From assembly GCA_040218735.1 (NCBI GenBank), contig JAVJQW010000046.1:1-64000 (forward strand): DNA of 64,000 nt, given 5' to 3'. Origin of the DNA: Deltaproteobacteria bacterium (GTDB lineage Bacteria > Myxococcota > Kuafuiibacteriia > Kuafuiibacteriales > Kuafuiibacteriaceae). Position numbers and translations under genes: made by a program. Every line of letters starts with the position of its first letter. The stretch's first letter is position 1. Shown in pieces: positions 6,197 to 25,259 of this stretch. A model generated the notes under the pieces. The model had not been told where the DNA came from. It made no database searches and saw nothing but the letters and a program-made list of their open reading frames with translations.

Positions 6197-7867
6197 TCAC
6201 TGCGCAAGGATGTGCTCGATGTCGAACTGCACGGTCTCCAGTACGTAGGGCGCCGGCGAGCCGAACGCCTCCAGCCCCGGACCGTCGCGCAACGCTTGCT
6301 CCGACACCCACGCCGTCCGTGCCGTCGTTGGATCCGTGAGGAGGAACTGGCGCCCGTCGGGGCCGTCGCGCACGTCGGTCGCGACGACCGCGTGGCCGCT
6401 GGAGTGCCCGGGGATCTGCATCCCGATGGCGGCGTGACCCGTCGCGTCGAGCTGCGCCGCGAGCCGGTCGAAGGCGTCCGGGAAGTCCTCGACGCGCTGT
6501 CGGATGTACGGGCGCTGCGCGATCTCCGCGAGCGCGCTGCCGGTGTCCATACCGGTGTAGCTGCCGTGCGCCTCCATCGTCTCGGCGTTCGTGCGCAGCT
6601 GGTCGAGGAGCTCGGTCGGGAGGTCGACGCCGTTCGCGCGCAGGTCGGCGAGCGCCGCGTCGAACCCCGCTTGGTCGAAGTCCTGTCCCTTCGCGTAGGC
6701 CTTCAGGTGATCGACGGCGGTCGAGTCGATCTTCCCGGCTTCGATCAGCGCCCCGATCTGCGGGCCGTACAAACCATTGATCGTGTCCGCGGGCTCGCGG
6801 TCGATCGCGAGGCCGCTGACGGTCTCGGCCCCGGGCGGAGCCTCCCAGCCGTCGGGGACCTCGACGCCTTGGAAGAACGTGCGCTCGCGCTCGAGGGTCG
6901 CGCGTTGCTGCTCGGTCGCCGCTTCGAAGCCCGTGTTGTGAACGTCGCGCGCGTAGACCGGATCGATCTCGCCTCTCACGATCTGCGCGACGGTCGGGGC
7001 GCAGGAATGCGTGAACGCCTGCGGCAGCGCGTCGTTGTCACCGCGGTCGTCGGTCGCGCCGATCCACGGGCGGTCCGGATCGATCGCCTGCGTGTTTGCC
7101 TCGTGCACGTCGGTGAGGGTTGTGGTGCGCGTCAGCTCGTCGCGCGGTAGCCCTCGGATGTCCTCGGCAAACGCTTCGACGTCGTCCAGGCCCTCCACCG
7201 ATCCCCCGGGCATCTGCGGCGCGCGTGCGCCGATGGCCTTCAGGATCAGCGCCTGCTCGGCGCTCGGCGACGCGCCGCCGGGGCGACGTCCGCCGGGGCG
7301 CCCCGCCTGGTCGAGGAGGTCCGTCACCCGCGCGCGTTCGGCGGGGTCGAGCGCGCCGAGGGTGTCGGCGGCGGCCCGCGCGTCGTTCGGGCTCAGCACG
7401 CCCGCCTGCCCGCGGGGGCTGTCGCTGCGCGGCGTCGCGACGCCGTTGGTGAGGATGCGACGCTCGCGCTCGTTGATCGCGGGGTGGCCGATGAGCGCTT
7501 CGTACGTGCCGAGCGCGCGCTCGGCGTTGGGGCCGCCGGCCGCGCGGCGCAGCGACGCTTCCGTCTGCGCACGGTCCGATGCGCCGAGCGTCGCGAGGTG
7601 TCCCGCGACGAGGTCTGCGTCGGCGAAGCCGGACAGATCGAACCCGCTGGCTTCGATCGCCGCGCGCTGGACCGCGCCCGCGTCGCGCATCTGTTGGCGC
7701 GCGGCTTCCGCCGCGGCGGGATCCGGTCCGTCCGCGGCCGCGCCCGAGAACAAGACGTCGGCGAGCCCGTCCGGGAACCCGACCGGCGGCGCTTCAACGC
7801 CGTCGACGACGGAGGGGCCCGGCGGGCCGAGGGTGGGGCGGGGACCGAGACCGTTCAACGGGGACAC
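6197..7867 (-). CDS. Hypothetical protein with a C-terminal papain-like (C39-like) cysteine peptidase domain
   Basis: QAFTHSCAPT (Gln/Cys), GHAVV (His) and LLTDP (Asp). Start placed at GTG 7867 with GAGG upstream; the ORF track extends to 8101. Confidence 0.65.
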   Translation of the reverse strand: MSPLNGLGPRPTLGPPGPSVVDGVEAPPVGFPDGLADVLFSGAAADGPDPAAAEAARQQMRDAGAVQRAAIEASGFDLSGFADADLVAGHLATLGASDRAQTEASLRRAAGGPNAERALGTYEALIGHPAINERERRILTNGVATPRSDSPRGQAGVLSPNDARAAADTLGALDPAERARVTDLLDQAGRPGGRRPGGASPSAEQALILKAIGARAPQMPGGSVEGLDDVEAFAEDIRGLPRDELTRTTTLTDVHEANTQAIDPDRPWIGATDDRGDNDALPQAFTHSCAPTVAQIVRGEIDPVYARDVHNTGFEAATEQQRATLERERTFFQGVEVPDGWEAPPGAETVSGLAIDREPADTINGLYGPQIGALIEAGKIDSTAVDHLKAYAKGQDFDQAGFDAALADLRANGVDLPTELLDQLRTNAETMEAHGSYTGMDTGSALAEIAQRPYIRQRVEDFPDAFDRLAAQLDATGHAAIGMQIPGHSSGHAVVATDVRDGPDGRQFLLTDPTTARTAWVSEQALRDGPGLEAFGSPAPYVLETVQFDIEHILAQ

Positions 7868-8108
7868 GCAGGGAGCCTCAGCAGGTTCCGTACCGGACTC
7901 GGCGTCGGTCCCTCGAAGCAGGGACTGTCGCCGACGGCCTACAGATCGCCGTCGGTAGAGTTCAGTACACGTGCGGTCCCCGCGTCGGCGGTAGTCGCAC
8001 CGCACACCTTGCCCTGCGCCTGCCTCGTGGAACGTCTGTTGCGAATACGAAAACCGCAGGACGGGCACCTTGTTCCGGCTTTCGATGGCTTCTAGCTTCA
8101 CAACTCGG

Positions 8109-8894
8109 ATGTGTGACGAGCTTCACGTCCGCGTCGAAGCGGCCGCGGGTCTGCTCGATCTTGCGAGTCTGTCGGTTCGTACGGCGTTCGAGAAAACGCG
8201 CGCGTACGCGAACACGATCGCCGCCGTCGCGATCCCGCAGCCGACGGGGCAGGCCGGCCTCGACCTCTGGAACGAGGTCGCGCCCGAGGTGCAGTGCCTC
8301 CTCGCATCGACGCAGCAGCTCTGTACCGAGCTCGACGCTCTGGGTGGACTCGGCCGCGGCCGCGCGCTCGACGAAGAGCTCGCCACGATCGTCGAGTTCC
8401 TGCGCGCCGACATGCAGCGTTTCTGCCATCGCGTCGGTAACGGTGCCCTCGACGACGCGTGGCTCCTAACCGCGAACGTCGAAGCGCTCGCGCGCGGATG
8501 TCACAGCGCCGTGACGGGACTTTTGTCTCTCTTCGTCCGGGCGACACACGGTCGTCACGCACCGGCAGTCGCGCAGTTCCTCGCGGCCGACCTTCGGCGT
8601 CGCACGGAGACGGTGCGTCAGCTGCGCGGGCTCACGGACCTCGTGCAGGAGTTGGAGCAGAATCCTCGGGCGCAGCCGTCGCAGACGACGGCCACCCTCG
8701 AAGACGCGCTCGCTGCGTTCGTCGCCGCCGGTGCCCTCCACTCCATGCCCGTCGAGATGCGGCGCGACTTCATCGCGTTTCGTCTGAACCTGTTGGAGGT
8801 CGACGGTCCGAGCACGCTTCGCCCCGCGCTCGAAGGTTTTTTGAGGTTCCTCGAGGTCCTCACCCACCAAGTCGCGAAGGGACAGAGCTGGTGA
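8109..8894 (+). CDS. Hypothetical alpha-helical protein, first gene of the FIST-kinase operon
   Basis: Balanced amino-acid composition and amphipathic helices; 28 nt upstream of the 2208-aa gene. Start uncertain (8070 or 8109). Confidence 0.65.
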   Translation: MCDELHVRVEAAAGLLDLASLSVRTAFEKTRAYANTIAAVAIPQPTGQAGLDLWNEVAPEVQCLLASTQQLCTELDALGGLGRGRALDEELATIVEFLRADMQRFCHRVGNGALDDAWLLTANVEALARGCHSAVTGLLSLFVRATHGRHAPAVAQFLAADLRRRTETVRQLRGLTDLVQELEQNPRAQPSQTTATLEDALAAFVAAGALHSMPVEMRRDFIAFRLNLLEVDGPSTLRPALEGFLRFLEVLTHQVAKGQSW

Positions 8895-8922
8895 GCTGTC
8901 TCGACGCACAGATCCGAGCGAG

Positions 8923-11900
8923 GTGACCGACGTGGTCCAGGTCCACAACAAGAACCGACTCCCCCTCAAGACCGTCCTCGCGGGGCGGTACCGACTCGAG
9001 GCGCTCGTCGCGTCCGGGGGGATGGGCACCGTGTACCGCGCGAACGATGCGTTCCTCGGTCAGCCCGTAGCGATCAAGGTGCTGCACCCGCCGAAGGCGA
9101 AGAAGACTTCGTCGGAGGTGAAGAAGGCGCTCGAAGATCTCAGCAACGAGGCGCGCGCGAGCATCAAGCTCACGCACCCGAACATCGTCCGTACCTACAA
9201 CTACGAACGCGACCACAGCCGCGAGTTCCTGATCAGCGAGTTCGTCGACGGCAAGGACCTCAAGCGCCACCGCGCCGAGGTCACGAAGCTCGCGCCGCAC
9301 GAGGTGATTCGGATCGGCATCCACGTCTGCGACGCGCTCACCCACGCGCGCGAGCAAGGCATCCTGCACCTCGACATCAAACCCGCGAACATCCTCATGA
9401 CCGCCGACGGCGTCGTGAAGGTCTGCGACTTCGGTCTGTCGCCGCTCACCGGGTTGATGACGTCCTCCAGCTCGGACCGCCTGATGGTCGGCAGCCCGCC
9501 GTACATGAGCCCGGAGATGATCCGCGAACGGCGCGCCGACCACCGCTCGGACATCTACTCGCTCGGCGCGACGCTCTACGACCTCGCGACCGGACGCCCG
9601 CCGTTCGGCCGGGATCCCGCGGCGTGCATGCGCCGACACATCGAAGCGCCCGTCCCCACCCCGAGCGGGTTGCCGAAGGGGCTCACGGTCGTCCTGCAAC
9701 GTGCCCTGCAGAAGGACCCCTGGGCCCGCTACCAAACCGCCGAACAAATGCGCCGCGCGCTCGAGGACCTGGGCCTCCCGCAGGTGCGGTCGTCGGCCGA
9801 CATCGCGTCGCTCGACGCCACCCAAGACAGTGAGCCGGAAGGAAAGACCATGGTGAACGTGAACGCCGACATCGCGAGTGACCTCGAAGCCGAGCCCGTC
9901 GAGAAGACCGCGAAGGAGCCCATGCCCGTGCCGCCGTCCTCGTGTGAGGTCGTGAGCCTTCGCTACGACCTCGACGCGAAGAAGTGGTCGCAGCCCGCGT
10001 TCCCGGCGCTCGACTCGCGTCGCACGCTCGTGCTCGTCGCCGGTGCGCCCGAGTGCTTCGACGATCCGCGCGCGTTGATCGAGCTGTTCTGCGCGTACCC
10101 GCAGTCGCACGTGATCGGGTGCAGCACTTCGGGGGAGATCTTCGGCCAGGAGGTCGTCGACCGGAGCCTGTCCGTCGGCATCATCAAGTTCGAGAAGACC
10201 GAGCTCGCCAACGTCACCGTCGAAGTCCCGGACGCACGTCACTCCTACGCCGCCGCCGAAGCGCTGGCGCGGAAGCTCACGCGCCCCGACCTACGCGCGG
10301 TGCTCGTCTTCTCCGAGGGGGTCTCCGTCAACGGCAGCGAGCTCGTGCGTGGCTTCAACGCGACGCTGCCCAAGGGCGTCGTCGTCGCGGGCGGGCTCGC
10401 GGGCGACGGCGAACGTTTCGAGCGCACGTGGCTGTTCGGCGGCGGGCGCGTCCGTCAGCACTCCGTCGTCGCGGTCGGGCTCTACGGTGACCACCTCTTG
10501 ATCGGGACGGGGTCGAAGGGCGGCTGGGATCAGTTCGGCGCGGACCGCGTCGTGTCGAAGTCGCAGGGCAACGTCGTGTACGAGATCGACGGCGTCCCCG
10601 CGCTCGCGCTCTACGAGCGCTACCTCGGCCCGAAGGCCAAGGACCTCCCGGCGAGCGGCCTGTTGTTCCCGCTCGCGATGCGCACCGAAGGCGGCAAGTC
10701 CCTCGTGCGCACGCTGCTCGGCGTCGACCGGAGCGCGCAGAGCCTCACCTTCGCGGGCGACATCCCGGAGGGCAGCCACGTGCAGCTCATGAAGGCGAAC
10801 TTCGATCGACTGATCGACGGCGCCAACGACGCGGGCATCGCGTCGACGTCGAAGCTCGCCACGCACCAGGGTCGCTTCCTCACGCTGGCGGTCAGCTGCG
10901 TCGGGCGCCGGCTCGTGCTCGGCGAGCGCATCGAAGAGGAGGTCGCGTCCGCGAAGCAGGCGCTCCCGAAGAACACCGACATCGTCGGCTTCTACTCGTA
11001 CGGCGAGATCTCACCGTTCACGACGGGCGCGTGTGACCTCCACAACCAGACCATGACGCTCACCGTGCTCGGCGAGTCCGCGGAGCCGGTGCGCCACGTC
11101 CCGGCGGAGGCTCCGTCGAAGGCCATGCGCGTCGAGTCGATTGGCTTCGACCTCGAGAACCGGACGTGGCTGCCGCCGAAGATGCCCGACCTCGATTCGC
11201 CGCAGACCCTCGTGCTCGCGTTCTGCGCGCCGGAGGTCGCGGACCAGGCGGCGCCGCTGCAGCAGCTCGCGCGTCAGTATCCCAACTCGGTCGTCGTCGG
11301 TTGCTCCGGCTCGGGCGAGATCCACGGTACCGAGGTGCGCGACCTCTCCATCGCCGCGACCGTCACGTCCTTCGCCCATACGAAGCTCCGCACGCACTCC
11401 GCGTCCGTCGCGCGGCCCGAGGAGTCCTACGCGGTCGCGCGCCGTCTCGCCTCCGCGCTGAAGGACGACGATCTCCGCGCGGTGCTCGTGCTCTCCGAAG
11501 GCCTCGCGGTCAACGGGAGCGAGCTGGTGCGCGGGTTCAACGAAGTGCTCCCCGACGACGTCATCGTCACCGGCGGGCTCGCGGGCGACGGCGCGCGGTT
11601 CGAGCGCACCTGGGTCTTCTGCGGCGGCGAGGTTCGGCAGAACACCGTCGTGGTCGTCGGCTTCTACGGCGACCACATCCAGGTCGGCCACGGCAGCAAG
11701 GGCGGCTGGGACAAGTTCGGTCCGGAGCGGCGCATCACGAAGGCGGTCGGCAACGTGCTCTACGAGATCGACGGCAAGCCGGCGCTCGAGCTCTACAAGG
11801 CGTACCTCGGACCGAAGGCGGCGGAGCTCCCGGCGAGCGGCCTGTTGTTCCCGCTGTCGCTCCGCGAGGACGCGAGCTCCGACAAGTTCCTCGTCCGCAC

Positions 11901-14900
11901 GCTGCTCGGCGTCGACGAGTCGAACCAGACGCTCACGTTCGCGGGTGACGTGCCGGAGGGCTACCTCGTGCAGCTGATGAAGGCGGACTTCGACCGCCTC
12001 GTCGTCGGCGCGGGCGACGCCGCGAAACACACGCGCGAGCTCCTCGAAGGCGACGTCGACCAGGCGCTCGCCGTCGCGATCAGCTGCGTCGGCCGGCGCC
12101 TCGTACTCGGGGCGCGGACCGACGAGGAGGTCGAGGCCGTCCTCGACGTCCTGCCGGAGGGGACGCAGCTCTGCGGCTTCTACTCGTACGGCGAGCTGTC
12201 GCCGTTCGGGCGCGGGAGCTGCGACCTGCACAACCAGACGATGACGCTCACGGTGTTCGCCGAGAGCGCGCGTCCGCTCCAGCGCCCGCAGCGCGACGCG
12301 ACGCAGCAGCTGCCGTCGTTCGATCCGATGCCCCGCAACGACACCCGTCCGAGCGTCGCGCAGCGGATGCAGGTCGAGCGTCGGCGCTACGACCTCGAGA
12401 CGAACCGCTGGTCCGAGCCGCTGCCCGACGCCGACTCGATCCGCACCCTCATCCTCGCGTTCGGCGCGCCGGAGGTGCCGGCGGACTGCCCGGCGATTCG
12501 CGAGCTCACGAAGAAGTACCCGCGCTCCACGATCGTGGGTTGCTCGACGGCGGGTGAGATCCACGGGACGGAGGTCGACGACCACTCGATCAGCGTCGCC
12601 ATCACGCGCTTCTCGCGGACACACCTCGCGCGCGCTTCGGTGCGCGTGAACGATCCACGGCAGAGCTTCGTCGCGGGTGAGACCCTCGCGCGCAACCTCG
12701 ACCGCAAGGACCTGCGCGGCGTGCTGGTGCTCTCCGAGGGCCTCGGCGTCAACGGGAGCGAGCTGGTGCGCGGCTTCAACGCCGTGCTCCCGGAGGACGT
12801 CGTGATCACCGGCGGCCTCTCCGGGGACGGCACCCGATTCGAGAAGACGTGGGTCCTCGTCGACGGCGAGCTGGTGCAGAACGTCGTCGTCGCGGTGGGG
12901 CTGTACGGCGACCACGTCCTGATCGGCCACGGCAGCAAGGGTGGCTGGGACAAGTTCGGCGCGGAGCGGCGCATCACGCGGTCCGAGGGCAACGTGCTCT
13001 ACGAGATCGACGGCGAGCCGGCCCTCGCGCTCTACAAGCGGTACCTCGGCGCGAAGGCGACGGAGCTCCCGGCGAGCGGGTTGTTGTTCCCGCTGTCGCT
13101 GCGTTCCAGCGCCGACGATACGAAGTTCCTGGTCCGCACGCTGTTGTCCGTCGACGAGGCGACCAACAGCATGACCTTCGCGGGTGACGTACCGACCGGG
13201 CACCTCGTGCAGTTGATGAAGGCCGACTTCGATCGGCTCGTGCAGGGCGCGACCGGCGCCGCCAACGCGTCGATGGCGCGCATCGGCTCCGAGGATCACG
13301 GCGCCGCGCTCGCGGTGGCGGTCAGCTGCGTCGGGCGACGCCTGGTGCTCGGTGCGCGCACCGAGGACGAGGTCGAGGCCGTCGACGAAGTGCTGCCGAA
13401 GGGTTCGGAGCTCGTCGGCTTCTACTCGTACGGAGAGCTGTCACCGTTCGCCGACGGTCGCTGCGATCTGCACAACCAGACGATGACGCTCACCGTCATC
13501 CAGGAGTCGCAGATGCCCGTGGAGCGGAAGGCGCGACCGACGCCCGCGCGCAGCCCTTCCATGGTGCAGACGCCCCCCGCGGCGCCCGCACCGGTGGCGC
13601 CCGAGCCCGCTTCGGACTCCGTGACGGGCACGGGGACGTTCACGCTGCAGGAGGCGCACCTCGGCGTCGACGTACAGGTCGCGAAGCACCCGACGCTCGA
13701 CGTCGTGCGTTTCAACGGCCGCATCACGGAGCAGTTCGAGGGCCGCCGCATCGCGGAGCGTCTGAGCGGACGGGTGGTGTTCGACCTCAGCGGCATCGAG
13801 CGCATCACGTCCTTCGGCGTGCGCGAGTGGCTGCAGATGACGAAGACCATGAAGGTCGACGAGCTCTACCTCGCGCGGTGCTCGGACGCGGTGGTGAACC
13901 AGCTCGCGATGATTCCGGGCTTCGCGGGGGACGGGCAGTTGGTCTCGTTCCACGCGCCGTACCTGTGTGATCGTTGCGGACACGAGTTCACGTCCGAGAT
14001 CGACGTCGAGCGCGACGTGGAGACGTTGAAGGGCGCCGAGAGCGTCGCGGACTGCCCGCGCTGCTCGGCGACGGCGCCGCTCGACGACGACCCGGAGGCG
14101 TACTTCGCGTTTGCGACGGGGGCCCTCGGGACCAAGGTCCCGGACGACGTTCGGGCCGCGCTGCAGGAGCACGCGGAAGCACCGGAGCCGGAGGCGGCGC
14201 GCGTCGAGAAGACGGTGGAGGGCCGTGTCACGCGCATCCGTGCGCACGGCGCGCTCGACACCTCGATCAGCTGGAAGCGTGTGCTCGACGGCGTCGAAGG
14301 GGACGTCGTCATCGAGCTCGGCGGCGCGACGTCGCACACCGACGCGGGGCTGCGGCTGTTCCATCAGGGGCTGAACCGCATCCGCGCCGACGTCGACTCG
14401 TTGAAGCTGAGGGGGGTCCCGCTCGACTACGTCGCGATGTTGCGCGAGCAGGGCCTGTCGGCGCGCGACGTCGAGAGTGTGATCGTCGAGGCGACGGGGA
14501 CGGAGTCGCAGACCAAGCGCGAGACGCGGATCGATCTCAACGAACACCGCGACCGATTGAGCGTGGGCGAGGCGCCGTTCGTCGTCGACAAACGCACGCA
14601 CGAGGTCCTCGAGTTCGGCCGCGCGCTCCCGCTCCTGACTTGGGCGACCGGAGGTATGACGTCCACGGCGAGCGCAGCGGCGGCGCCGACGACGATCCTG
14701 CGCGAGGCGCCGATCCCGCTCGCGCCGCCGCCGACGTCGTCGGCACGTCCGTGGTTGCCGTTCATACTCGGGGCGCTCGTCGTCGCCGTGGCGTTCCTCG
14801 GGTACCGCGAGATGACGCGCACGCCGCCGAAACCCGCGGTGGTCGAGACGGCGCCGAAGCCCGTCGCCGAGCCGACGCCGAAGAAGGTGGAGCTGCCGCC

Positions 14901-15549
14901 CGCGTGGACGGAGCGTCCGTTCGTGGTGGGGCCCGACGTCGCGACGATCGTCGGTCGCGCCGTGGGCGCCGACGAAGAGGCGGCGTTGGAGGCGGCGCGC
15001 ATCGACATGATGGCGCACCTCGCGCGGGAGCTGATCGGCTCGCTCGAAGGGACGTACGGCGCCTTCGCCGCGGCGCAGCCGAAGCTGGAGCAGCCGGAGG
15101 AGATCGCGCGTCGTCTGGAGGCGGCGGTCGGTCCGATCCTCGCGCCGGTGCGCAAGGACCACTGGAGCCGGCCGGCCGACGGTGGAGTCGAGATGTTCGT
15201 CCGGTACGAAGCGCCGCGTGCGCGCTACGACGAAGCGCGCGCCCACTTCGGGGAGGAGCGTGCGATCCGCGGGCTGTCGGTCGCGCCGATCCCGCCGACG
15301 ATCGCGGGGCCCGCCGAGGGGGTGCTCGTGTTCGACCTGCGGCCCGGGTTGCAGGCAGATCGTGCGGGCCTTCGGGTGGGCGACGTCATCACGCGAATCG
15401 GTGACCGCGTCGTGCGCACGCCCGCCGAGTTCGAGGAGACCTGGAAGAGTGAGTGGTGGCGGACGTCGGTCGGTCGTTCGTTGATCCTGCAGGTCGAGAC
15501 GCCGCGGGGTTCTCATCAGGTTCGGTTCGCGAGAACGTCCCGCCGATGA
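8923..15549 (+). CDS. Giant membrane-anchored Ser/Thr kinase with 3x FIST (NosP-like), 2x STAS-like/Zn-ribbon, TM, LPP20-like region and PDZ
   Basis: Kinase motifs SGGMGTVY, VAIK, HLDIKPAN, DFG, GSPPYMSPE. Three copies of GGLAGDG / GSKGGW / SCVGRRLVLG / GFYSYGE / LHNQTMT. STAS DLSGIERITSFG, then CDRC...CPRC; TM WLPFILGALVVAVAFLGY; PDZ ADRAGLRVGDVITRI. Confidence 0.92.
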   Translation: MTDVVQVHNKNRLPLKTVLAGRYRLEALVASGGMGTVYRANDAFLGQPVAIKVLHPPKAKKTSSEVKKALEDLSNEARASIKLTHPNIVRTYNYERDHSREFLISEFVDGKDLKRHRAEVTKLAPHEVIRIGIHVCDALTHAREQGILHLDIKPANILMTADGVVKVCDFGLSPLTGLMTSSSSDRLMVGSPPYMSPEMIRERRADHRSDIYSLGATLYDLATGRPPFGRDPAACMRRHIEAPVPTPSGLPKGLTVVLQRALQKDPWARYQTAEQMRRALEDLGLPQVRSSADIASLDATQDSEPEGKTMVNVNADIASDLEAEPVEKTAKEPMPVPPSSCEVVSLRYDLDAKKWSQPAFPALDSRRTLVLVAGAPECFDDPRALIELFCAYPQSHVIGCSTSGEIFGQEVVDRSLSVGIIKFEKTELANVTVEVPDARHSYAAAEALARKLTRPDLRAVLVFSEGVSVNGSELVRGFNATLPKGVVVAGGLAGDGERFERTWLFGGGRVRQHSVVAVGLYGDHLLIGTGSKGGWDQFGADRVVSKSQGNVVYEIDGVPALALYERYLGPKAKDLPASGLLFPLAMRTEGGKSLVRTLLGVDRSAQSLTFAGDIPEGSHVQLMKANFDRLIDGANDAGIASTSKLATHQGRFLTLAVSCVGRRLVLGERIEEEVASAKQALPKNTDIVGFYSYGEISPFTTGACDLHNQTMTLTVLGESAEPVRHVPAEAPSKAMRVESIGFDLENRTWLPPKMPDLDSPQTLVLAFCAPEVADQAAPLQQLARQYPNSVVVGCSGSGEIHGTEVRDLSIAATVTSFAHTKLRTHSASVARPEESYAVARRLASALKDDDLRAVLVLSEGLAVNGSELVRGFNEVLPDDVIVTGGLAGDGARFERTWVFCGGEVRQNTVVVVGFYGDHIQVGHGSKGGWDKFGPERRITKAVGNVLYEIDGKPALELYKAYLGPKAAELPASGLLFPLSLREDASSDKFLVRTLLGVDESNQTLTFAGDVPEGYLVQLMKADFDRLVVGAGDAAKHTRELLEGDVDQALAVAISCVGRRLVLGARTDEEVEAVLDVLPEGTQLCGFYSYGELSPFGRGSCDLHNQTMTLTVFAESARPLQRPQRDATQQLPSFDPMPRNDTRPSVAQRMQVERRRYDLETNRWSEPLPDADSIRTLILAFGAPEVPADCPAIRELTKKYPRSTIVGCSTAGEIHGTEVDDHSISVAITRFSRTHLARASVRVNDPRQSFVAGETLARNLDRKDLRGVLVLSEGLGVNGSELVRGFNAVLPEDVVITGGLSGDGTRFEKTWVLVDGELVQNVVVAVGLYGDHVLIGHGSKGGWDKFGAERRITRSEGNVLYEIDGEPALALYKRYLGAKATELPASGLLFPLSLRSSADDTKFLVRTLLSVDEATNSMTFAGDVPTGHLVQLMKADFDRLVQGATGAANASMARIGSEDHGAALAVAVSCVGRRLVLGARTEDEVEAVDEVLPKGSELVGFYSYGELSPFADGRCDLHNQTMTLTVIQESQMPVERKARPTPARSPSMVQTPPAAPAPVAPEPASDSVTGTGTFTLQEAHLGVDVQVAKHPTLDVVRFNGRITEQFEGRRIAERLSGRVVFDLSGIERITSFGVREWLQMTKTMKVDELYLARCSDAVVNQLAMIPGFAGDGQLVSFHAPYLCDRCGHEFTSEIDVERDVETLKGAESVADCPRCSATAPLDDDPEAYFAFATGALGTKVPDDVRAALQEHAEAPEPEAARVEKTVEGRVTRIRAHGALDTSISWKRVLDGVEGDVVIELGGATSHTDAGLRLFHQGLNRIRADVDSLKLRGVPLDYVAMLREQGLSARDVESVIVEATGTESQTKRETRIDLNEHRDRLSVGEAPFVVDKRTHEVLEFGRALPLLTWATGGMTSTASAAAAPTTILREAPIPLAPPPTSSARPWLPFILGALVVAVAFLGYREMTRTPPKPAVVETAPKPVAEPTPKKVELPPAWTERPFVVGPDVATIVGRAVGADEEAALEAARIDMMAHLARELIGSLEGTYGAFAAAQPKLEQPEEIARRLEAAVGPILAPVRKDHWSRPADGGVEMFVRYEAPRARYDEARAHFGEERAIRGLSVAPIPPTIAGPAEGVLVFDLRPGLQADRAGLRVGDVITRIGDRVVRTPAEFEETWKSEWWRTSVGRSLILQVETPRGSHQVRFARTSRR
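9940..13510 (+). repeat. Three tandem ~1.15-kb intragenic FIST repeats (~9940-11080, ~11125-12270, ~12367-13510)
   Basis: Near-identical nucleotide blocks, e.g. ctcccggcgagcggc/gggctgttgttcccgct, ggcttctactcgtacgg and cacaaccagac, recur in all three copies. Confidence 0.9.
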
Positions 15550-16499
15550 GCTCGGGCGCCCACATCGTCGTGTTCGACAGGAACGCCGCGGTGCGGAAAC
15601 GGATCGGGCGTGTGCTGGGCGCGGCCGGGAACCTGGAGGAGGTCGCGGGTTACGACCTGGTCGTGCCCGAGGCCTTCGCCGGACGGCCGCGTCTCATCGG
15701 CTGCAACCTCGAACAGCTCTCGGCGGTGACGGAGGTCCTCGCCGACGATCTCCCGTTCACGCAGCTGCTCGTGTGGGGGACGCGGGACTCCCGTACCTTC
15801 CTGTCGCGGTCGTCGTCGGACCGTCGCTACGGGCGCTTCGTCGCTTGGCCGGAGTTTGCGTCCATGCCGCGCCCCGCGGAGCTGTTCCTGACCGCGTCGG
15901 TGCTGCTGTCGCCGTCGTCCGGTGTCGCGCTGGACGGCCTCGTGCTGGCGGGCGCGGCGACGCGAACGTTCGAGCCGAGGACGACCGACGATCTCGAAGA
16001 GACGGTGCAGGCCGTGCGGGACCTCTCGCTGCAGAGTGGGATCGTGGGTCGCCAAGCGGAGCGCATCGCGGTCGCCGCGCACGAGCTGCTGATGAATGCG
16101 ATGTACGGCGCGCCGACGACGTCGGACGGGTTGCCGAAGTACGCGCACGATCGCAAACAGACGATCCGCCTGGAGCGCCAGGAGATACCGACGGTGAAGG
16201 TCGCGACGGACGGGTCGCGGTTCGGCATCGAGGTCTCGGATCCGTTCGGGCGGCTCTCGCGCGAGCACTTGTTCTCGGGCGTCGCGCGCGGCCTCGCCAG
16301 CCGGGACGCGGGCGACGTTCTGGACACCAGCCACGGCGGCGCGGGGATCGGGTTGTTCAAGATCTTCGACGCCGCGCACTCCGTGTTCATCGACGTCCGG
16401 CACCTGCGGAGCACACGCGTGACGGCGGTGTTCGATCTGGACGTCACGGCTCGCGACCAGCGCGCGATGCCGACGACACTCTGTTGGTTCGAGGATTGA
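15546..16499 (+). CDS. RsbW/SpoIIAB-like HATPase (Ser kinase) with a degenerate N-terminal receiver-like domain
   Basis: ATGA overlap with the giant kinase; N box HELLMNAM, G1 DPFG, G2 GGAGIGL; no HisKA H-box seen. Confidence 0.78.
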   Translation: MSSGAHIVVFDRNAAVRKRIGRVLGAAGNLEEVAGYDLVVPEAFAGRPRLIGCNLEQLSAVTEVLADDLPFTQLLVWGTRDSRTFLSRSSSDRRYGRFVAWPEFASMPRPAELFLTASVLLSPSSGVALDGLVLAGAATRTFEPRTTDDLEETVQAVRDLSLQSGIVGRQAERIAVAAHELLMNAMYGAPTTSDGLPKYAHDRKQTIRLERQEIPTVKVATDGSRFGIEVSDPFGRLSREHLFSGVARGLASRDAGDVLDTSHGGAGIGLFKIFDAAHSVFIDVRHLRSTRVTAVFDLDVTARDQRAMPTTLCWFED

Positions 16500-16507
16500 G
16501 GTAGACG

Positions 16508-17737
16508 ATGGAAGTCCAAGCCCTGTTGGCGCGCCAGCTGAAGAAGGTCGGGCACTCGGATCTCGACGCGGCCCCCTCGAACGAGGTGTGGCGCAAGCTC
16601 CTTCGACGGATCAGCGACCACTACAAACACATGGACGACGACCGCGAGATGTTGATGCGGTCGTTGGAGGTGTCGACGAACGAGATGTCGTCGATCTCTT
16701 CGGACATGGGGCACAGCGTCTCGAAGGAGCTCCTGGAGTGGCTGGCGGAGGCGCTCAACGCGATGTCCGCGGTGGGGGACAGCAGCCAGGTCGGCTCGGT
16801 GCAGGCGGCGACACAGCGCCTGGAGGGGATCGAGGTCGCCTTCCTGGAGCGGCTCGGCGGTCTGGGGGCGGGCGTCGGAGGTGACAACACGCCGGAGGTG
16901 ACGGCGCTGCGGCATCACTTCGTCACGCTGTCCGACGTCATCAAACGCATGCTCGAGGAGCGCGCGAGCCACCGCGAGATGGAGCGCGAGATCGAGGTCG
17001 CGCGGTCGGTGCAGAAGCTCCTCCTCCCCGACGCGAGTGAGTTCCACCGCCCGTTCCTCGACGTGTCGGCGGACTCGCAGGCGGCGTCCGTCTGCTCCGG
17101 CGACTGGTGGGCGGTGCACGATCTCCCCGACGGTCGGGTGCTGGTGGTGCTCGGCGACGTCACGGGGCACGGCGTCCCGGCGGGGATCATGACGGGCGTC
17201 GCGAAGGCGTCGTGTGATGTCACGCGGGCGGTCTACGGCGACAAGCTCCAGGCGGGTCAGCTGCTGACGCTCATGAACCGCGCCGTCGAGAGCGCCGGGC
17301 AGCAGCAGCTCCTGATGACCTGCGTCGTCGCGATCTTCAACCCGCACGATCGGGTGCTGACGATCGCCAACGCAGGGCACGTGCTGCCGTACATCGTGCG
17401 GCCGTCGTCCGACCGCCACCACATCTCGACGGTGCGCGCGCACGGGACACCGCTGGGGGCGAGCCACGACGCGAGTTACCGCGAGGTGCGGGTCTCGCTG
17501 GAGACGGACGACATGTTCATCTTCTACACCGACGGCCTCATCGAACGAGAGGGGCCGAGCGGCGAGCAGTTCGGACACCGCCGCCTGCAGAGCGTGCTGG
17601 AGCAAACGGCGGGCTTTGGCGCGGCGGGGGTGAAGGACTCGTTGCTGCACCACCTCGCGCGGCACGCGGAGGGGCTCCCGAACACCGACGACGTCACGCT
17701 GGTCGTCGCGCGCTTCGGTGAGGGGCCTCAGCCCTGA
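16508..17737 (+). CDS. SpoIIE/RsbU-like PP2C phosphatase with an N-terminal helical domain
   Basis: ARSVQKLLLP, SGDWW, GDVTGHG, NAGH, YTDGL, DDVTLVV. Confidence 0.92.
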   Translation: MEVQALLARQLKKVGHSDLDAAPSNEVWRKLLRRISDHYKHMDDDREMLMRSLEVSTNEMSSISSDMGHSVSKELLEWLAEALNAMSAVGDSSQVGSVQAATQRLEGIEVAFLERLGGLGAGVGGDNTPEVTALRHHFVTLSDVIKRMLEERASHREMEREIEVARSVQKLLLPDASEFHRPFLDVSADSQAASVCSGDWWAVHDLPDGRVLVVLGDVTGHGVPAGIMTGVAKASCDVTRAVYGDKLQAGQLLTLMNRAVESAGQQQLLMTCVVAIFNPHDRVLTIANAGHVLPYIVRPSSDRHHISTVRAHGTPLGASHDASYREVRVSLETDDMFIFYTDGLIEREGPSGEQFGHRRLQSVLEQTAGFGAAGVKDSLLHHLARHAEGLPNTDDVTLVVARFGEGPQP

Positions 17738-17740
17738 CGA

Positions 17741-19600
17741 TCACTTCGGCCGCTTCTCTTCGAGCGAGATCCGGACGTCGATGACGCCTTCCTCCAGCTT
17801 CGTGCGGATCGGCAGGCCGAAGTCGTGGAACACGCGGAGCATTTTCGCGTTGGTCGAGAGGACCTCGGCGGTGAGCGCGTCGAGCCCGCGGCTGCGTGCG
17901 AAGGCCACGAGTCGCTCCAGCAGCGCGGTGCCGACGCCGACGCCCTGCCAGTCGTCGCGCACGACGAACGCGACCTCCGCGTCGTCTTGGCCGACGACGC
18001 CCGCGTAGCGACCCACCGCGAGGATGGCGGGCTCGGCGTCCGGGCTCTCGGTGTGCTCGACCACGAACGCGACGCGCCGGTCGTAGTCCACGTCGAGGTA
18101 CTGCTCCATCGCTTCGTGCGGGAGCCGAACCATCGCCGTCATCCACCGCTTCTGCTTGGTCTCCTCGGAGAGGTTGTAGAAGAGGTCCTGCATCTTCCGC
18201 TCGTCCATGCGGCGCAGGAGTCGGATGCGCACCGTCCCGCGCGAGGTTTCGAGCTTGCGGCTCCAACCGCGGGGCGCGGTGGCCGGGCCGGTCTGCTGAT
18301 CCTGGAAGACGTACTTTCTCTGCTTGGCGGAGGCGAGCAGCTCGTCGCGGAAGTCGGGGTGGGCGATTTCGATCAGCGCCGTCGCACGCTCGCGCACCGA
18401 ACGGCCCCACAGGTCGGCGATGCCGAACTCCGTGACGACGTAGCGCACGTCGCCGCGCGAGGTGACGACCCCCGAGCCCTCGGCGAGGCTCGCGACGATG
18501 CGGCTGATCGTGCCGCCCTTCGCGGTCGAGCGCAGCGCGATGATCGGCTTCCCGCCGGGGCACAGCGAGGCGCCGCGGATGAAGTCCACCTGGCCGCCGA
18601 TGCCCGAGTAGAACTTGGACCCGATGGAGTCGGCCGAGACCTGACCCGTGAGGTCCACTTGGAGCGCGCTGTTGATCGCGACCATCATGTGCTGACGCGA
18701 GATGCGCCCCGGGTCGTTCATGATGTCCGACGGCCGGAACTCGAACGCCGGGTTGTCGTCGATGAAGTCGTAGAGGCGCTGCGTCCCGAACGTGAACGAC
18801 GAGTTGATGCGCCACTTGTCGGTGGTCTTGTACTTACCGGTGACGTTCCCGTTTTCGACGAGGTCGATCAGCCGGTCGGAGAACATCTCCGTCCAGACGC
18901 CGAGGTCCTTGCGATCCATCAGCGACATCAGCGTCGCGTCCGGGATGCGGCCGATGCCCATCTGCAGGGTCGCGCGGTCGGGCACGAGCGAGGCGACGTG
19001 TTTGCCGATCTCCATGTCCACCTCGTCCAGGGTCTCGGGCGGGTGCTCCGGGAGCGGGTGTTCGGTGGTGCACCAAGCGTCGATCAGGCGCGTGGGGATC
19101 GCGCCGGCGCCGTGGATGCGCGGCATCGCCGGGTTCACTTCGGCGATCACGACGTCGGCGGCGTCGACGGCCGCGAGCACGATGTCCACGGAGACGCCGA
19201 GGTTCACGTAGCCGTTGTCGTCCGGCGGGGCCACGGACACGAGCGCGACATCGACGGGCGTGCGGCGCGAGGTGATGAGCTTCGGGATCTGCGAGAGGAA
19301 CACCGGCGTGTAGTCGGCCCGCCCGGCGCCGACGGCTTCACGGACGTTCGGCCCGATGAAGTAGGCGTTGTGGCGGAAGTTCGATGCGAATCGCTCCTCG
19401 ACATAGGGCGCGGGTCCGAGCGTCAGCAGGTGAACGATCGGGTTGTCCGAGAAACACTCGGCGTTGGCGGTGAGCGCTTCGACGAGCGCGATCGGCTCGG
19501 CCGCGCCGGACCCGATGAAGATGTGCCGCCCCCGCCCGATGCGCCGCACGGCGTCCATCGCGGAGTGTTCTTTGGCCTTCCAGTCTTCCTTCCAACCCAT
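17741..19600 (-). CDS. Acetyl-CoA hydrolase/transferase fused to a C-terminal GNAT domain
   Basis: GSGAAEP, TLQMGIG, WTEM, YSGIGGQVDFIRGA; C-terminal EVAFVVRDDWQGVGVG. Confidence 0.92.
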   Translation of the reverse strand: MGWKEDWKAKEHSAMDAVRRIGRGRHIFIGSGAAEPIALVEALTANAECFSDNPIVHLLTLGPAPYVEERFASNFRHNAYFIGPNVREAVGAGRADYTPVFLSQIPKLITSRRTPVDVALVSVAPPDDNGYVNLGVSVDIVLAAVDAADVVIAEVNPAMPRIHGAGAIPTRLIDAWCTTEHPLPEHPPETLDEVDMEIGKHVASLVPDRATLQMGIGRIPDATLMSLMDRKDLGVWTEMFSDRLIDLVENGNVTGKYKTTDKWRINSSFTFGTQRLYDFIDDNPAFEFRPSDIMNDPGRISRQHMMVAINSALQVDLTGQVSADSIGSKFYSGIGGQVDFIRGASLCPGGKPIIALRSTAKGGTISRIVASLAEGSGVVTSRGDVRYVVTEFGIADLWGRSVRERATALIEIAHPDFRDELLASAKQRKYVFQDQQTGPATAPRGWSRKLETSRGTVRIRLLRRMDERKMQDLFYNLSEETKQKRWMTAMVRLPHEAMEQYLDVDYDRRVAFVVEHTESPDAEPAILAVGRYAGVVGQDDAEVAFVVRDDWQGVGVGTALLERLVAFARSRGLDALTAEVLSTNAKMLRVFHDFGLPIRTKLEEGVIDVRISLEEKRPK

Positions 19601-19671: not shown

Positions 19672-20784
19672 CTACACCTTCGGGGTTTGCTCGAAACGCT
19701 CGATCTCCGACGCCGTGATCGGGAGCTCGACCGTGAACTTCGACCCGTGCCCGCGTTCGCTCGTCGCGACGATCGAGCCGTTGTGTCTCTCGACGATGCG
19801 CCGAACCGTAGCGAGCCCCACGCCGGCGCCGTCCCCTTCGGAGGCGGGGACGAGGCGTCGGAAGGGGCGGAAGATCTCCTCTCGCCACTTCATGTCGAAG
19901 CCGGTGCCGTTGTCTTCCACTTCGACGTGCACCGAAGCGCCCACGACCGTCGCCCGGATGCCGACCTCGAGCATGATCTCCGGCCGCGCGAACGCCAAGG
20001 CGTTGGCGATCAGGTTCTCGAACACCAGGCGGAGCTGCTTCGTATTGCCGGTGACCGTCGGAAGCTTCTCCGCGGCGACCAGCGCGTGCGAGGCTTCGAT
20101 GGCCGGCCCGAATCCGTGCACGACCTCGCGGACGCAGAGGTCGAGGTCGACGCTCTCGTCGACGGCGCCGCGTGTCGCTTCGGCGTAGGCGAGCATCCCC
20201 TGGATCATCGTGTCCATCCGCGTCGTCGACCGCCGGATCTTGTCCATGTACTGGTCTCGATCCTTGGGGTCGTCCTCCGTGATGATGTCGAGGTACCCGA
20301 GGATCGCGCGGAGCGGCGCGCGAAGATCGTGGGCGGCGGCGTGGGCGAGCTCGTGCAGCTCGTCGTTGGAACGCTCGAGCCGTTCGGTCTTGTCGCGGAG
20401 CAGCTGACGCGACTGGTACATCTCGAGGTAAATCTTCGCCTTGCCGCGGAGCACACTCTGCCGGAACGGGAGGCGGAGACGATCGATGATGCCGCGATCG
20501 AACGCGAGGCTCCCCACGCGGTTCCACGTCTCGTCCGACGCCATCAACAGGATCGGCACGTGAGACTTGGTGCGGTCGCCGTGGATCAGTCGCGCGAGAT
20601 CGACGCCGCCGATGTCCGGGAGCTCGGCGGCGACGATGACGAGCGCGAGCTCGTTCTCCGAGACGTGCTCGAGCGCAGTGTTGCAGGCGCCCGCTTCGAG
20701 GACCTCGAAGCCCAACGATTGGAGCGTGCCGGCGATGAGGCCGCGCTCGGACTCGTCCGCGACGACGAGAGCCTTCGCGTTCAC
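19672..20784 (-). CDS. Histidine kinase with an N-terminal atypical receiver domain
   Basis: H box AHDLRAPL, N box NLIANA, G1 DNGTGF, G2 GAGVGL. The receiver has VIVA where the phospho-Asp is expected. GTGA overlap with cheR. Confidence 0.88.
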   Translation of the reverse strand: MNAKALVVADESERGLIAGTLQSLGFEVLEAGACNTALEHVSENELALVIVAAELPDIGGVDLARLIHGDRTKSHVPILLMASDETWNRVGSLAFDRGIIDRLRLPFRQSVLRGKAKIYLEMYQSRQLLRDKTERLERSNDELHELAHAAAHDLRAPLRAILGYLDIITEDDPKDRDQYMDKIRRSTTRMDTMIQGMLAYAEATRGAVDESVDLDLCVREVVHGFGPAIEASHALVAAEKLPTVTGNTKQLRLVFENLIANALAFARPEIMLEVGIRATVVGASVHVEVEDNGTGFDMKWREEIFRPFRRLVPASEGDGAGVGLATVRRIVERHNGSIVATSERGHGSKFTVELPITASEIERFEQTPKV

Positions 20785-25152: not shown

Positions 25153-25259
25153 CCCCACTGACTCGTATTCGGCCGGTCGGGTTTCGAGTTGAGCCAAACC
25201 CGGAAGGGGAACTCTACCCGGCCAGCGGGCCGCCGAACCTGCTCCACGTGGGCACGGCG

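Follow-up and report, generated by a model that had tools for sequence, protein, structure and literature searches.

The control of a STAS domain by a kinase and a phosphatase that act on one of its serines is a textbook signalling device, of which the SpoIIAB-SpoIIAA-SpoIIE and RsbW-RsbV-RsbU systems of Bacillus are the described examples most directly comparable with the locus analyzed here. That locus is a four-gene operon at positions 8109-17737 (forward strand) of a stretch of 64,000 nucleotides of contig JAVJQW010000046.1, which is referred to as a whole as “the window”. The four open reading frames (ORFs) of the operon encode a protein without known family (ORF1), a scaffold of 2208 amino acids in which a Hanks-type serine/threonine kinase domain, three “FIST” units, two STAS domains and a PDZ domain are joined (ORF2), a protein with a GHKL-type serine kinase fold (ORF3) and a SpoIIE-type PP2C phosphatase (ORF4). 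On balance, the operon probably encodes a membrane-anchored partner-switching module that operates without a sigma factor, belongs to a large family in the Myxococcota and is coupled to Hanks kinases.

The module shares with the Bacillus switches the GHKL kinase fold (Z scores of 13-14), a STAS serine at the equal structural position and a phosphatase of the SpoIIE-family PP2C type, and in the model of the complex its kinase and STAS domain take up a like mutual orientation with the serine placed at the ATP site. It differs from them in that no sigma factor is present, in that the STAS domain lies within a 2208-residue scaffold as one of two tandem copies and carries a ribbon of four cysteines, in that ORF3 adds a receiver-like domain, in that FIST units and a Hanks kinase form part of the scaffold, and in that the similarity of the proteins falls below what sequence profiles detect.

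Sigma-less partner switches are known. In Vibrio fischeri, SypE is reported as a single protein of kinase-REC-PP2C order that acts on Ser56 of SypA, a free STAS protein of 105 amino acids which is a downstream partner and not an antagonist of a sigma factor (PMC10120452). ORF3 and ORF4 together hold the three domains of SypE; here, however, the domains are split between a protein with the receiver-like and kinase domains and a protein with the PP2C domain, and the acceptor position of the receiver is an asparagine. In the SiaABCD system of Pseudomonas aeruginosa, also described as sigma-less, the PP2C SiaA and the kinase SiaB set the phosphorylation state of SiaC, which acts on an enzyme. SiaB is among the folds that match ORF3 (Z 10.9), and ORF4 weakly matches the model of SiaA (NCBIfam NF038263) with 62.9 bits, far under its equivalog cut-off of 700. 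The reported output of SiaABCD is a diguanylate cyclase encoded in its own operon, whereas the present operon encodes none and the candidate output is the Hanks kinase. What is new in the present case is thus a variant of the sigma-less switch that is wired to Hanks kinases, and this variant is not unique to the genome in which it was found.

The stressosome, a large particle composed of RsbR, RsbS and RsbT and accompanied by RsbX and RsbU, resembles the operon in its set of domains, since it too combines a sensor placed before a STAS domain, a second STAS domain, a GHKL kinase and a PP2C. In the operon, however, a single zinc-ribbon protein that is predicted to lie in the membrane contains both STAS domains, and no RsbV or sigma-factor branch is nearby. 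The FIST and FIST_C domain pair is shared with NosP, a stand-alone protein that is reported to control the histidine kinases NahK or NosK (PMC12570481, PMC8846402), but the three units of the operon are internal to the scaffold, no histidine kinase accompanies them, and each lies far below the cut-off of the NosP model.

A precedent within the myxobacteria is found in a survey of 2010 (Treuner-Lange 2010; PMC2887360), which records STAS proteins fused to eukaryote-like kinases in Sorangium cellulosum in one sentence and in counts, names the RsbRST module, and leaves open the function of the myxobacterial STAS proteins. In the main text of that paper the term FIST has 0 occurrences and neither the ORF3 family nor the zinc ribbon nor the operon appears, although its supplements may list some of the genes. 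These kinase-STAS fusions belong to the same family as ORF2. The Sorangium operons found in the present work encode ORF3-like and PP2C proteins together with one protein of the order FISTxN-STAS-STAS-TM-PDZ (where TM is a transmembrane helix) and another of the order kinase-STAS-STAS-TM-PDZ, while in the window the kinase and the FIST units stand on one scaffold. No publication was found on FIST domains in combination with STAS domains or partner switches, on myxobacterial FIST-kinase proteins or on STAS-zinc ribbon proteins, in a search from which subscription journals were mostly absent.

Organization of the operon and proposed mechanism

The four genes of the operon are the following.

8109-8894, forward strand: ORF1, 261 amino acids from the ATG used in its Atlas record, with alternative starts at 8085 and 8070
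8923-15549, forward strand: ORF2, 2208 amino acids, scaffold with predicted membrane placement
15546-16499, forward strand: ORF3, 317 amino acids with the start taken from the recorded 317-residue protein; receiver-like domain (residues 5-126) and SpoIIAB/RsbW-type GHKL serine kinase domain (residues 136-300), both assigned by fold
16508-17737, forward strand: ORF4, 409 amino acids; N-terminal region of about 200 residues and SpoIIE-type PP2C domain (residues 207-403), assigned by Pfam

The spacing of the genes is tight, and the junctions are exactly those given in the original prediction for this locus: a gap of 28 nucleotides between ORF1 and ORF2, an ATGA overlap between ORF2 and ORF3, and a gap of 8 nucleotides between ORF3 and ORF4. 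The G+C content at third codon positions (GC3) is 0.90-0.93 in ORF2 to ORF4 and 0.81 in ORF1, and the total G+C content is about 69% across the whole window. Within positions 8920-8934, the GTG annotated as the start of ORF2 (8923) coincides in part with a GAGG motif, and a second in-frame GTG at 8932, which lies 8 nucleotides past this motif, may be the true start of a protein that is 3 residues shorter.

The scaffold encoded by ORF2 reads, from its N-terminus, kinase, three pairs of FIST and FIST_C domains, a first STAS domain with a zinc ribbon (STAS-1), a second STAS domain (STAS-2), a TM helix, an alpha/beta domain and a PDZ domain. In the list below, pLDDT is the predicted local distance difference test score of the structural models.

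8995-9747, forward strand: Hanks-type serine/threonine kinase domain of the non-RD (HLD) kind, residues 25-275 (Pfam Pkinase)
9949-13578, forward strand: three FIST+FIST_C units, residues 343-730, 736-1150 and 1151-1552 (Pfam)
13648-14157, forward strand: STAS-1 with Cys4 zinc ribbon, proposed phospho-acceptor domain, residues 1576-1745 (profile, alignment)
13810-13812, forward strand: codon of Ser1630, predicted phosphorylation site in the dyad T1629-S1630 (alignment, model)
14158-14622, forward strand: STAS-2, degenerate copy, residues 1746-1900 (fold of about 1754-1875)
14752-14805, forward strand: single predicted TM helix, residues 1944-1961 (hydrophobicity)
14902-15252, forward strand: alpha/beta domain, presumed to be periplasmic, residues about 1994-2110 (model, pLDDT blocks 94-98)
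15253-15546, forward strand: HtrA-type PDZ domain, residues 2111-2208 (fold)

This agrees with the architecture originally predicted as regards the kinase, the three FIST units, the two STAS domains, the TM helix and the PDZ domain, but not as regards a second zinc ribbon, the cysteines of which are lost, or an LPP20-like domain, a label which could not be confirmed.

In the mechanism that we propose, ORF3 would dock on unphosphorylated STAS-1 and phosphorylate Ser1630, and ORF4 would take the phosphate off again. The three FIST units in the cytoplasm and the alpha/beta-PDZ region outside would serve as inputs that bias this cycle. The output would arise from the phosphorylation state of STAS-1, or from the docking and release of ORF3, and would most likely consist in the gating of the Hanks kinase, which in this operon is fused to the scaffold and in most relatives is carried by a paralogous neighbouring protein of the order kinase-STAS-STAS-TM-PDZ. 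The wiring of a partner switch, which had been predicted from the outset, is what the combination of a modelled SpoIIAB/RsbW fold, an invariant Ser1630 and a SpoIIE-type PP2C with its metal motifs points to.

The predicted GHKL kinase ORF3

Sequence profiles give almost no access to ORF3. Its only Pfam match is to HATPase_c_2 at E 0.088, it has no match in NCBIfam, and a profile of its family returned nothing relevant from the sequences of the Protein Data Bank (one chance match at E 0.17); of the 68 detectable relatives of similar length, only three carry a precomputed Pfam domain (HATPase_c). The evidence on ORF3 therefore comes from conservation and from a structural model, both of which are based on an alignment of 48 sequences. 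In this model (pLDDT 93.7), residues 136-300 match the whole of SpoIIAB (1th8_A) with a Z score of 14.3 and a root-mean-square deviation of 2.1 over 129 aligned residues, followed by RsbW (Z 13.1), UsfX (12.2), SiaB (10.9) and the RsbW domain of Rv1364c (10.7). The description of ORF3 as an RsbW-like HATPase that lacks an H-box is thus upheld, but it had missed the N-terminal domain, residues 5-126, whose fold is that of receivers (Z 8-10; PhyR 10.2, Spo0F 8.8).

Within the GHKL domain the segments HELLMNA (which resembles an N-box), DPFG and GGAGLG are invariant in 48/48 sequences, as are the individual residues E180, M183, N184, A185, D232, G235, G265, A266, G267 and G269. We take these segments to be the ones that bind Mg-ATP in GHKL proteins, and their invariance argues for retained ATP binding. 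The receiver-like domain has an aspartate at the acceptor position in 34 of the 48 sequences; ORF3 itself has an asparagine there and no lysine column is conserved, and for these two reasons the domain is probably a pseudo-receiver in this protein. When longer fused forms of ORF3 were sought, a single relative of 602 amino acids (P0196) emerged, in which a cNMP-binding domain, according to precomputed Pfam annotation, is joined to the GHKL half; it constitutes weak evidence for such forms.

The STAS domains and the modelled complex

The C-terminal 633 residues of ORF2 (1576-2208) were folded with 28 aligned relatives from genome loci as input, which gave a model with a mean pLDDT of 87 and values below 50 only over residues 1916-1988, where the membrane segment and its linkers lie. 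Pfam detects STAS_2 in ORF2 only at E 0.0022, while a profile of STAS-1 matches solved STAS proteins, among them 4hyl_A (E 8.7e-8) and the STAS domain of prestin (3e-5). The centre of STAS-1 is the segment R-x-T-S-F-G-V-R-E-W, in which S1630, R1627, G1632, R1634 and W1636 are present in 85/85 sequences, as are the ribbon cysteines C1682, C1685, C1711 and C1714; T1629 is kept in 83/85. The three aspartates that follow the ribbon (D1721-D1723) are invariant in the family. In the model, S1630 is the N-cap, or first residue, of the helix 55-67 that follows the central strand 40-53 (model numbering), and in the profile alignment it corresponds to the serine of the SSxG motif of the anti-sigma antagonist 4hyl. 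In SpoIIAA this position is occupied by Ser58, which is phosphorylated.

STAS-2 is homologous to STAS-1, the sequence of which also matches the second domain in many relatives. Its fold resembles that of the Haliangium antagonist 4hyl_B (Z 8.2), RsbV (8.1), SpoIIAA (7.7), RsbS (7.5) and a stressosome chain (7.2), and its column equivalent to the acceptor is variable (A 25, P 21, S 12 and D 8 of 76 sequences). The four cysteines of a second ribbon are kept in 66-71 of 76 relatives (about 87-93%), so that the repeated STAS/Zn-ribbon unit of the original prediction holds for the family; in ORF2 itself they are replaced by G1859, S1862, D1889 and T1892.

The complex of ORF3 with STAS-1 was modelled from the ORF3 family alignment and residues 1-175 of the scaffold alignment. 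The interface score ipSAE was 0.76 (0.76, 0.76 and 0.73 in the separate runs), against 0.00 for the best of 3 controls, and the runs share at least 87% of their contacts with a partner pLDDT of at least 86. S1630 (residue 55 of the fragment) contacts residues 180, 183 and 272 of ORF3, which belong to the ATP-site helix and the lid, while D1721-D1723 contact residues 301-303, which adjoin the nearly invariant R303 and R306. In the model, then, ORF3 binds STAS-1. The solved complexes SpoIIAA-SpoIIAB and RsbV-RsbW, with which no residue-by-residue comparison was made, are not known to have a contact equivalent to that of the ribbon.

The phosphatase ORF4

The prediction of a SpoIIE-type PP2C phosphatase proved sound: Pfam SpoIIE matches ORF4 at E 7e-42 (144 bits, cut-off 25), and in an alignment of 22 sequences at least 95% retain the metal motifs GDW, GDVTGHG, AGH, TDG and DD. 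Full-length relatives with 27-40% identity occur in 21 related loci, and the N-terminal region of about 200 residues aligns over its whole length among them.

This N-terminal region bears on a different interpretation of the operon, in which the scaffold would play the parts of both RsbR and RsbS and would hold ORF3 in the manner of RsbT. Upon a signal ORF3 would phosphorylate the STAS domain and be released, and the freed ORF3 would then activate ORF4, as a protein of RsbU type, by way of the N-terminal region, with the substrate of the phosphatase encoded elsewhere. The order of a sensor joined to a STAS domain, a STAS domain, a GHKL kinase and a PP2C does mirror RsbRST-RsbU, and the folds that match STAS-2 include those of RsbS and of a stressosome chain. 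There is, however, no single-domain STAS gene of RsbV type and no sigma factor in or beside the operon, the scaffold is predicted to be membrane-anchored and carries zinc ribbons that are absent from stressosome proteins, and the ranking of the folds does not separate an RsbT-like from a SpoIIAB-like ORF3. We regard this stressosome-like arrangement as unlikely.

Distribution and gene neighbourhood of the module

The family of the scaffold was collected by a whole-length search that gave 183 matches, of which the best 120 yielded 85 proteins in addition to the query. These come from Sorangium species, Kofleriaceae and Haliangium, and are annotated merely as FIST-domain proteins. The core of two STAS domains is common to all 86 but one partial record (STAS-1 in 85), the TM helix and outer region are found in 70 and the PDZ domain in 68, while the N-terminal kinase is found in 11. 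Among these at least 86 proteins the number of FIST units is 1 in 10, 2 in 54, 3 in 19, 4 in 2 and 6 in 1, the last being a relative of 3151 amino acids (P0006) with six FIST units on the same scaffold. A unique standing of the architecture is not supported by these counts, since the family has at least 86 members, 11 of them with the kinase, and includes a protein of 2231 amino acids with the same domain order.

The neighbourhood of ORF3 was examined in loci obtained by scanning species genomes, each species represented by one, for a sequence pattern, which found at least 604 stretches, at least 592 of them encoding a relative, and the best 80 loci were kept. The titles of these 80 name Sorangium, Chondromyces, Polyangiaceae, Kofleriaceae, Haliangium/Haliangiales, Myxococcaceae, Archangium, Labilithrix and Nannocystineae, together with one metagenome-assembled genome (MAG) of Bradymonadales and MAGs resolved no further than Myxococcales, Deltaproteobacteria or Proteobacteria. 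When the loci were searched by tblastn with the domains of the window, STAS-1/Zn was found in 69, the Hanks kinase in 66, FIST in 31 and the PP2C in 29, with all four present in 20. The association of ORF3 with the STAS/zinc-ribbon domain, part of the original prediction, is therefore seen as gene neighbourhood in 69/80 loci, while the binding itself is modelled.

Two layouts account for most of the 80 loci. In “type A” (36 loci), ORF3 is followed by the PP2C, a FISTxN-STAS-STAS-TM-PDZ protein and a kinase-STAS-STAS-TM-PDZ protein, or the genes stand in a rotation of this order, and 20 of the 36 have all four components; for Sorangium So ce26 and Chondromyces apiculatus, Pfam confirms the kinase, the zinc ribbon and the PDZ domain of the second protein. 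In “type B” (38 loci), a divergently oriented kinase (36/38) precedes ORF3 and a protein in which the STAS/Zn domain occurs twice, and there is neither FIST nor PP2C. The remaining 6 loci have neither layout, and at least 3 of them are short or truncated where ORF3 lies. In L048, the single type B locus inspected for this, a gene of the calcineurin-like Metallophos_2 family (13152-13826, forward strand) comes after the STAS-STAS protein, and may be an alternative phosphatase in the place where type A has the PP2C.

The near-constant company of the Hanks kinase, in 66/80 loci and in 36/38 of the type B loci that have no PP2C, raises the alternative that it is this kinase which phosphorylates T1629-S1630, in cis or between scaffolds, while ORF3 acts as an ATP-dependent reader or effector that recognizes one of the phosphorylation states and, itself or through its receiver-like domain, passes the signal on. 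A Thr-Ser dyad as conserved as this one (T in 83/85, S in 85/85) is of the kind favoured by Hanks kinases, and a kinase-linked role has been proposed earlier for the kinase-fused STAS domains of Sorangium (PMC2887360). The ATP-site residues of ORF3 are nevertheless invariant in 48/48 sequences, the model of the complex sets Ser1630 at this site in the geometry of a kinase and its substrate, and the operon encodes a PP2C from the class that dephosphorylates STAS serines, in view of which we give this alternative only a small chance of being correct.

The linkage of ORF3 to the STAS/Zn domain extends to whole genomes. Among 41 related genomes, a strong STAS/Zn match is found in 9/9 of those with ORF3 and in 2/32 of the others, and in the 8 of these 9 genomes other than that of the window the two matches lie within about 1.1 kb of each other. 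The genome of the window (G000) has three more copies of ORF3 on contig C28, two of which adjoin STAS/Zn genes; the third comes directly after a Pkinase-PEGA gene and is followed by a PAS-HisKA-HATPase-REC gene. The STAS/Zn-ribbon domains of this contig occur as a stand-alone protein of 151 amino acids, fused to TPR repeats, and as the head of a 693-residue protein. The genes of the cluster (locus L013) are at the following positions.

Contig C28, 3630-4589, 4594-6552 and 8738-10411, reverse strand: genes of the cluster of ORF3 paralogues
Contig C28, 10464-11396, 11418-13499, 14850-15305 and 15311-16285, forward strand: genes of the same cluster

The Hanks kinase as candidate output

The absence of an adjacent sigma factor, as stated in the original prediction, holds on a wider basis: no sigma-factor family was found among the flanking genes scanned, and in an all-against-all comparison of ORFs no other gene recurred in more than 2 of 18 loci, so that only the scaffolds, the PP2C and ORF3 recur. 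It is possible that a partner is encoded elsewhere. Given that neither a sigma factor nor any other recurrent gene is present, an output through the Hanks kinase is a reasonable proposal, because this kinase is the sole other enzyme that travels with the switch. The SypE/SypA system, in which the STAS protein is itself reported as the downstream element, offers a precedent for a STAS state that controls its own carrier (PMC10120452).

The kinase domain matches Pfam Pkinase (PF00069) with E 2.3e-44 and 152 bits against a cut-off of 31.7. What we take to be its functional motifs are all present, namely the G-loop (residues 32-37), the VAIK lysine K52, the catalytic segment HLDIKPANI (149-157), DFG (169-171) and SPE (196-198).

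Matches of the kinase domain to defence models could be taken to mean that the operon is an anti-phage system built around a serine/threonine kinase, of PD-T4-6 or MADS-like type. The best match to the PADLOC PD-T4-6 models has E 5e-72 and that to mad6 has E 6e-62, while NCBIfam MADS6 scores 141.5 bits, far under its cut-off of 460. These matches are confined to the kinase domain, for which other NCBIfam kinase families do equally well or better (Stk1/PknB, 259 bits), and ORF1, ORF3 and ORF4 are without any PADLOC match. There is, moreover, no anomaly of composition at the operon, and its flanking genes, as far as scanned, belong to metabolism or signalling and include no mobile-element family. 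A role in defence is consequently very improbable.

A wider reading of the partner-switching module can be put forward tentatively, and we think it possible but on present evidence doubtful, namely that it is a phylum-wide device of the Myxococcota, self-contained and represented in at least 592 loci, by which a partner switch composed of a GHKL serine kinase, a PP2C and a STAS/Zn-ribbon domain controls eukaryote-like serine/threonine kinases at the membrane in place of a sigma factor. One invariant serine of the scaffold would then gate the Hanks kinase, and the heads of the scaffold, with 1-6 FIST units inside and the PDZ domain outside, would set the state of this serine.

The history of the fusion between kinase and scaffold was approached with two trees, each from a quick search. 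In the kinase tree (93 rows), the nine FIST-fused kinases form one clade with support 100, which excludes the kinases encoded by kinase-STAS genes and those in the type B loci. The identity of the window kinase to the kinase-STAS kinases of the neighbouring type is 30-35%, and neither this value nor the tree supports the candidate explanation that the fused kinase is an orthologue of the neighbouring kinase-STAS gene of Sorangium type. In the scaffold tree, for which 60 rows were chosen from the 86 proteins and the loci, the window groups with the 2231-residue protein (support 99) while the fused proteins with one FIST unit are placed elsewhere (support 100), and the starred branches force at least two placements of the fused rows. 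The trees disagree, one implying a single fusion event and the other two, and either way domain shuffling or tree error could be responsible.

The FIST units and the presumed outer region

The domains proposed as inputs are well defined as families. In ORF2, Pfam FIST (PF08495) matches three stretches with 502 bits (cut-off 23.2, E 9e-152), and FIST_C (PF10442) matches three stretches with 362 bits (cut-off 28.5, E 2e-109). The ligand and mechanism of FIST are described as little known (PMC8846402), while NosP proteins, which consist of FIST and FIST_C, are reported to bind heme and to respond to nitric oxide (NO) (PMC12570481, PMC8846402). The original prediction had accordingly assigned a heme/NO input to the scaffold.

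If the FIST units were heme proteins of NosP type, the hub would report NO or heme; such a proposal touches nothing but the input and can be reconciled with the partner-switching mechanism. Besides the shared domain, it is in favour of such an input that cysteine and histidine columns are well kept over 188 units of the family (C794 99%, H1103 91%, H923 87%), although no published heme-ligand residue was found with which these columns could be compared. The NosP model (NCBIfam NF041558) gives the three units 68.1, 68.7 and 71.9 bits and the whole of ORF2 191.9 bits, against an equivalog cut-off of 450. Nor is the arrangement that of NosP, since the units are built into ORF2, in an operon that lacks a histidine kinase, while the usual arrangement, a FIST protein on its own next to a hybrid histidine kinase, is found elsewhere in the same genome. 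An input of this kind is not supported by the scores and appears quite improbable. The stand-alone protein, of 380 amino acids with FIST and FIST_C, is encoded on contig C21 (locus L014; 7482-8624, reverse strand, and 8621-10486, reverse strand, for the pair) directly downstream of the hybrid histidine kinase, and this protein, in the classical arrangement of NosP, itself scores only 63 bits against the cut-off of 450.

The TM helix (1944-1961) is the sole 19-residue hydrophobic stretch of ORF2, with a Kyte-Doolittle mean of up to 1.9, and no such stretch is present in ORF1, ORF3 or ORF4. The alpha/beta domain beyond it has no fold match among the top matches, which were filled by PDZ and STAS domains. 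Its identification as LPP20-like in the original prediction found no confirmation, as Pfam LPP20 (PF02169) matches 0/28 family members at E up to 0.01 and Atlas offers only the weak leads “Lipoprotein family” (0.90) and clusters bearing LPP20 (0.86-0.87). The PDZ domain has the fold of MamP (Z 12.8, root-mean-square deviation 1.8, 90 aligned residues) and DegQ (Z 12.5), with Foldseek matches to HtrA/DegQ PDZ domains at E 3e-5; Pfam PDZ_6 reaches 24.2 bits in ORF2, under its cut-off of 27, and PDZ_2 is found in 21/28 relatives (E up to 0.01). With the whole 633-residue C-terminal model as query, the top 50 Foldseek matches were PDZ-bearing chains only, and a wider fold search with this model returned nothing for its residues 419-535 or for STAS-1 separately.

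Evidence weighing against the proposed module

Several points weigh against the module as proposed. A scan found 0 promoter-like sites at the operon, and the 5 terminator-like sites lie within the range of shuffled sequence and are no commoner than in the shuffles. The kinship of ORF3 to SpoIIAB rests on fold and motifs, because sequence profiles miss it. The ipSAE mark attained by the model of the complex is reached by 116/157 solved complexes and by 2/215 mismatched pairs, a calibration which holds only roughly in this instance because our own alignments were used, and the pass may in addition reflect likeness to known structures, because the SpoIIAA-SpoIIAB and RsbV-RsbW complexes have been solved. 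The phosphatase is not universal, as PP2C and FIST are missing from every type B locus (38/80), and a genome of the same genus (G001, 75% complete) showed no match to ORF3 and no strong STAS/Zn match. The fusion in ORF2 is not a simple join of neighbouring genes, given the separate clade of the FIST-fused kinases and their low identity to the neighbouring type. Finally, positive charges are more numerous on the C-terminal side of the TM helix, contrary to the positive-inside rule, and the orientation with the N-terminus inside is argued only from the 1943-residue, enzyme-bearing part that precedes the helix.

Integrity of ORF2

If three tandem paralogous units stand in a metagenome-type assembly of 70 contigs, then it must be asked whether the ORF that contains them is an artefact in which paralogous FIST genes have been joined, as the original prediction itself had considered. 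The three units are, however, only 58-63% identical to one another at the protein level, which is too diverged for easy collapse or mis-joining. An independent contig of 22,553 bases (run X2) covers positions 8000-17800 of the window, and hence the entire operon, and shows 67 differences but not a single gap. The two repeat junctions are also spanned by short contigs from X3, a third run (10954-12058 and 12032-12459). Run X2 is from a different study than X1, the possible source run, and the contigs are short-read contigs. Proteins with the same architecture are also on record, one of 2208 amino acids with 98% identity and one of 2231 amino acids with 55% identity. The notion of an assembly chimera is hardly tenable in the face of this evidence. 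The contig comparison also gave some short-sided “joints” (20-27 letters per side), which were put down to other organisms or repeats and set aside.

ORF1 and the flanking genes

The inclusion of ORF1 in the signalling system, as originally predicted, is not borne out. ORF1 has no family in Pfam, NCBIfam, Atlas or PADLOC, it has 3 matches among 1.84 billion representative proteins, of which only its own cluster is strong, and tblastn finds it in 0/80 related loci. Its G+C contents at the three codon positions (0.74/0.47/0.81) are coding-like, and it is probably an orphan gene that is not a conserved part of the module. The combination of a lower GC3 than that of ORF2 to ORF4 and a lack of relatives is as in a young or recently acquired gene.

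Upstream of ORF1 and divergent from it is an open frame of 634 amino acids (window 6197-8101, reverse strand), which has a coding-like GC3 of 0.87 and no Pfam family. Downstream of the operon lies a dense signalling cluster (19672-27086), which comprises the following genes.

19672-21063, reverse strand: REC-HisKA-HATPase protein
20781-21653, reverse strand: CheR protein
21610-25197, reverse strand: protoglobin-GAF-HisKA-HATPase protein with three REC domains
25134-27086, forward strand: REC-GGDEF-EAL protein

Implications

Four aspects of the module go beyond a routine variation on partner switching: the size of the unannotated ORF3 family, the near-constant pairing with Hanks kinases, the modular FIST and kinase heads on a single scaffold, and the predictions that can be made for single residues. 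ORF3 defines a protein family that is invisible to domain databases. FIST, a widespread sensor domain of unsettled ligand, gains a new candidate output that can be tested, and the model makes predictions at the level of residues, which concern Ser1630, N184, D232 and the contact of R303/R306 with the three aspartates of STAS-1.

If the phylum-wide reading is correct, then the module would constitute a previously undescribed direct bridge between the two bacterial worlds of serine phosphorylation, and would help to explain why STAS proteins and kinases have expanded together in myxobacteria. These bacteria hold record numbers of both eukaryote-like kinases and STAS proteins, and the present results suggest that a share of each expansion is due to a single module, in which a partner switch on a membrane scaffold is wired to Hanks kinases.

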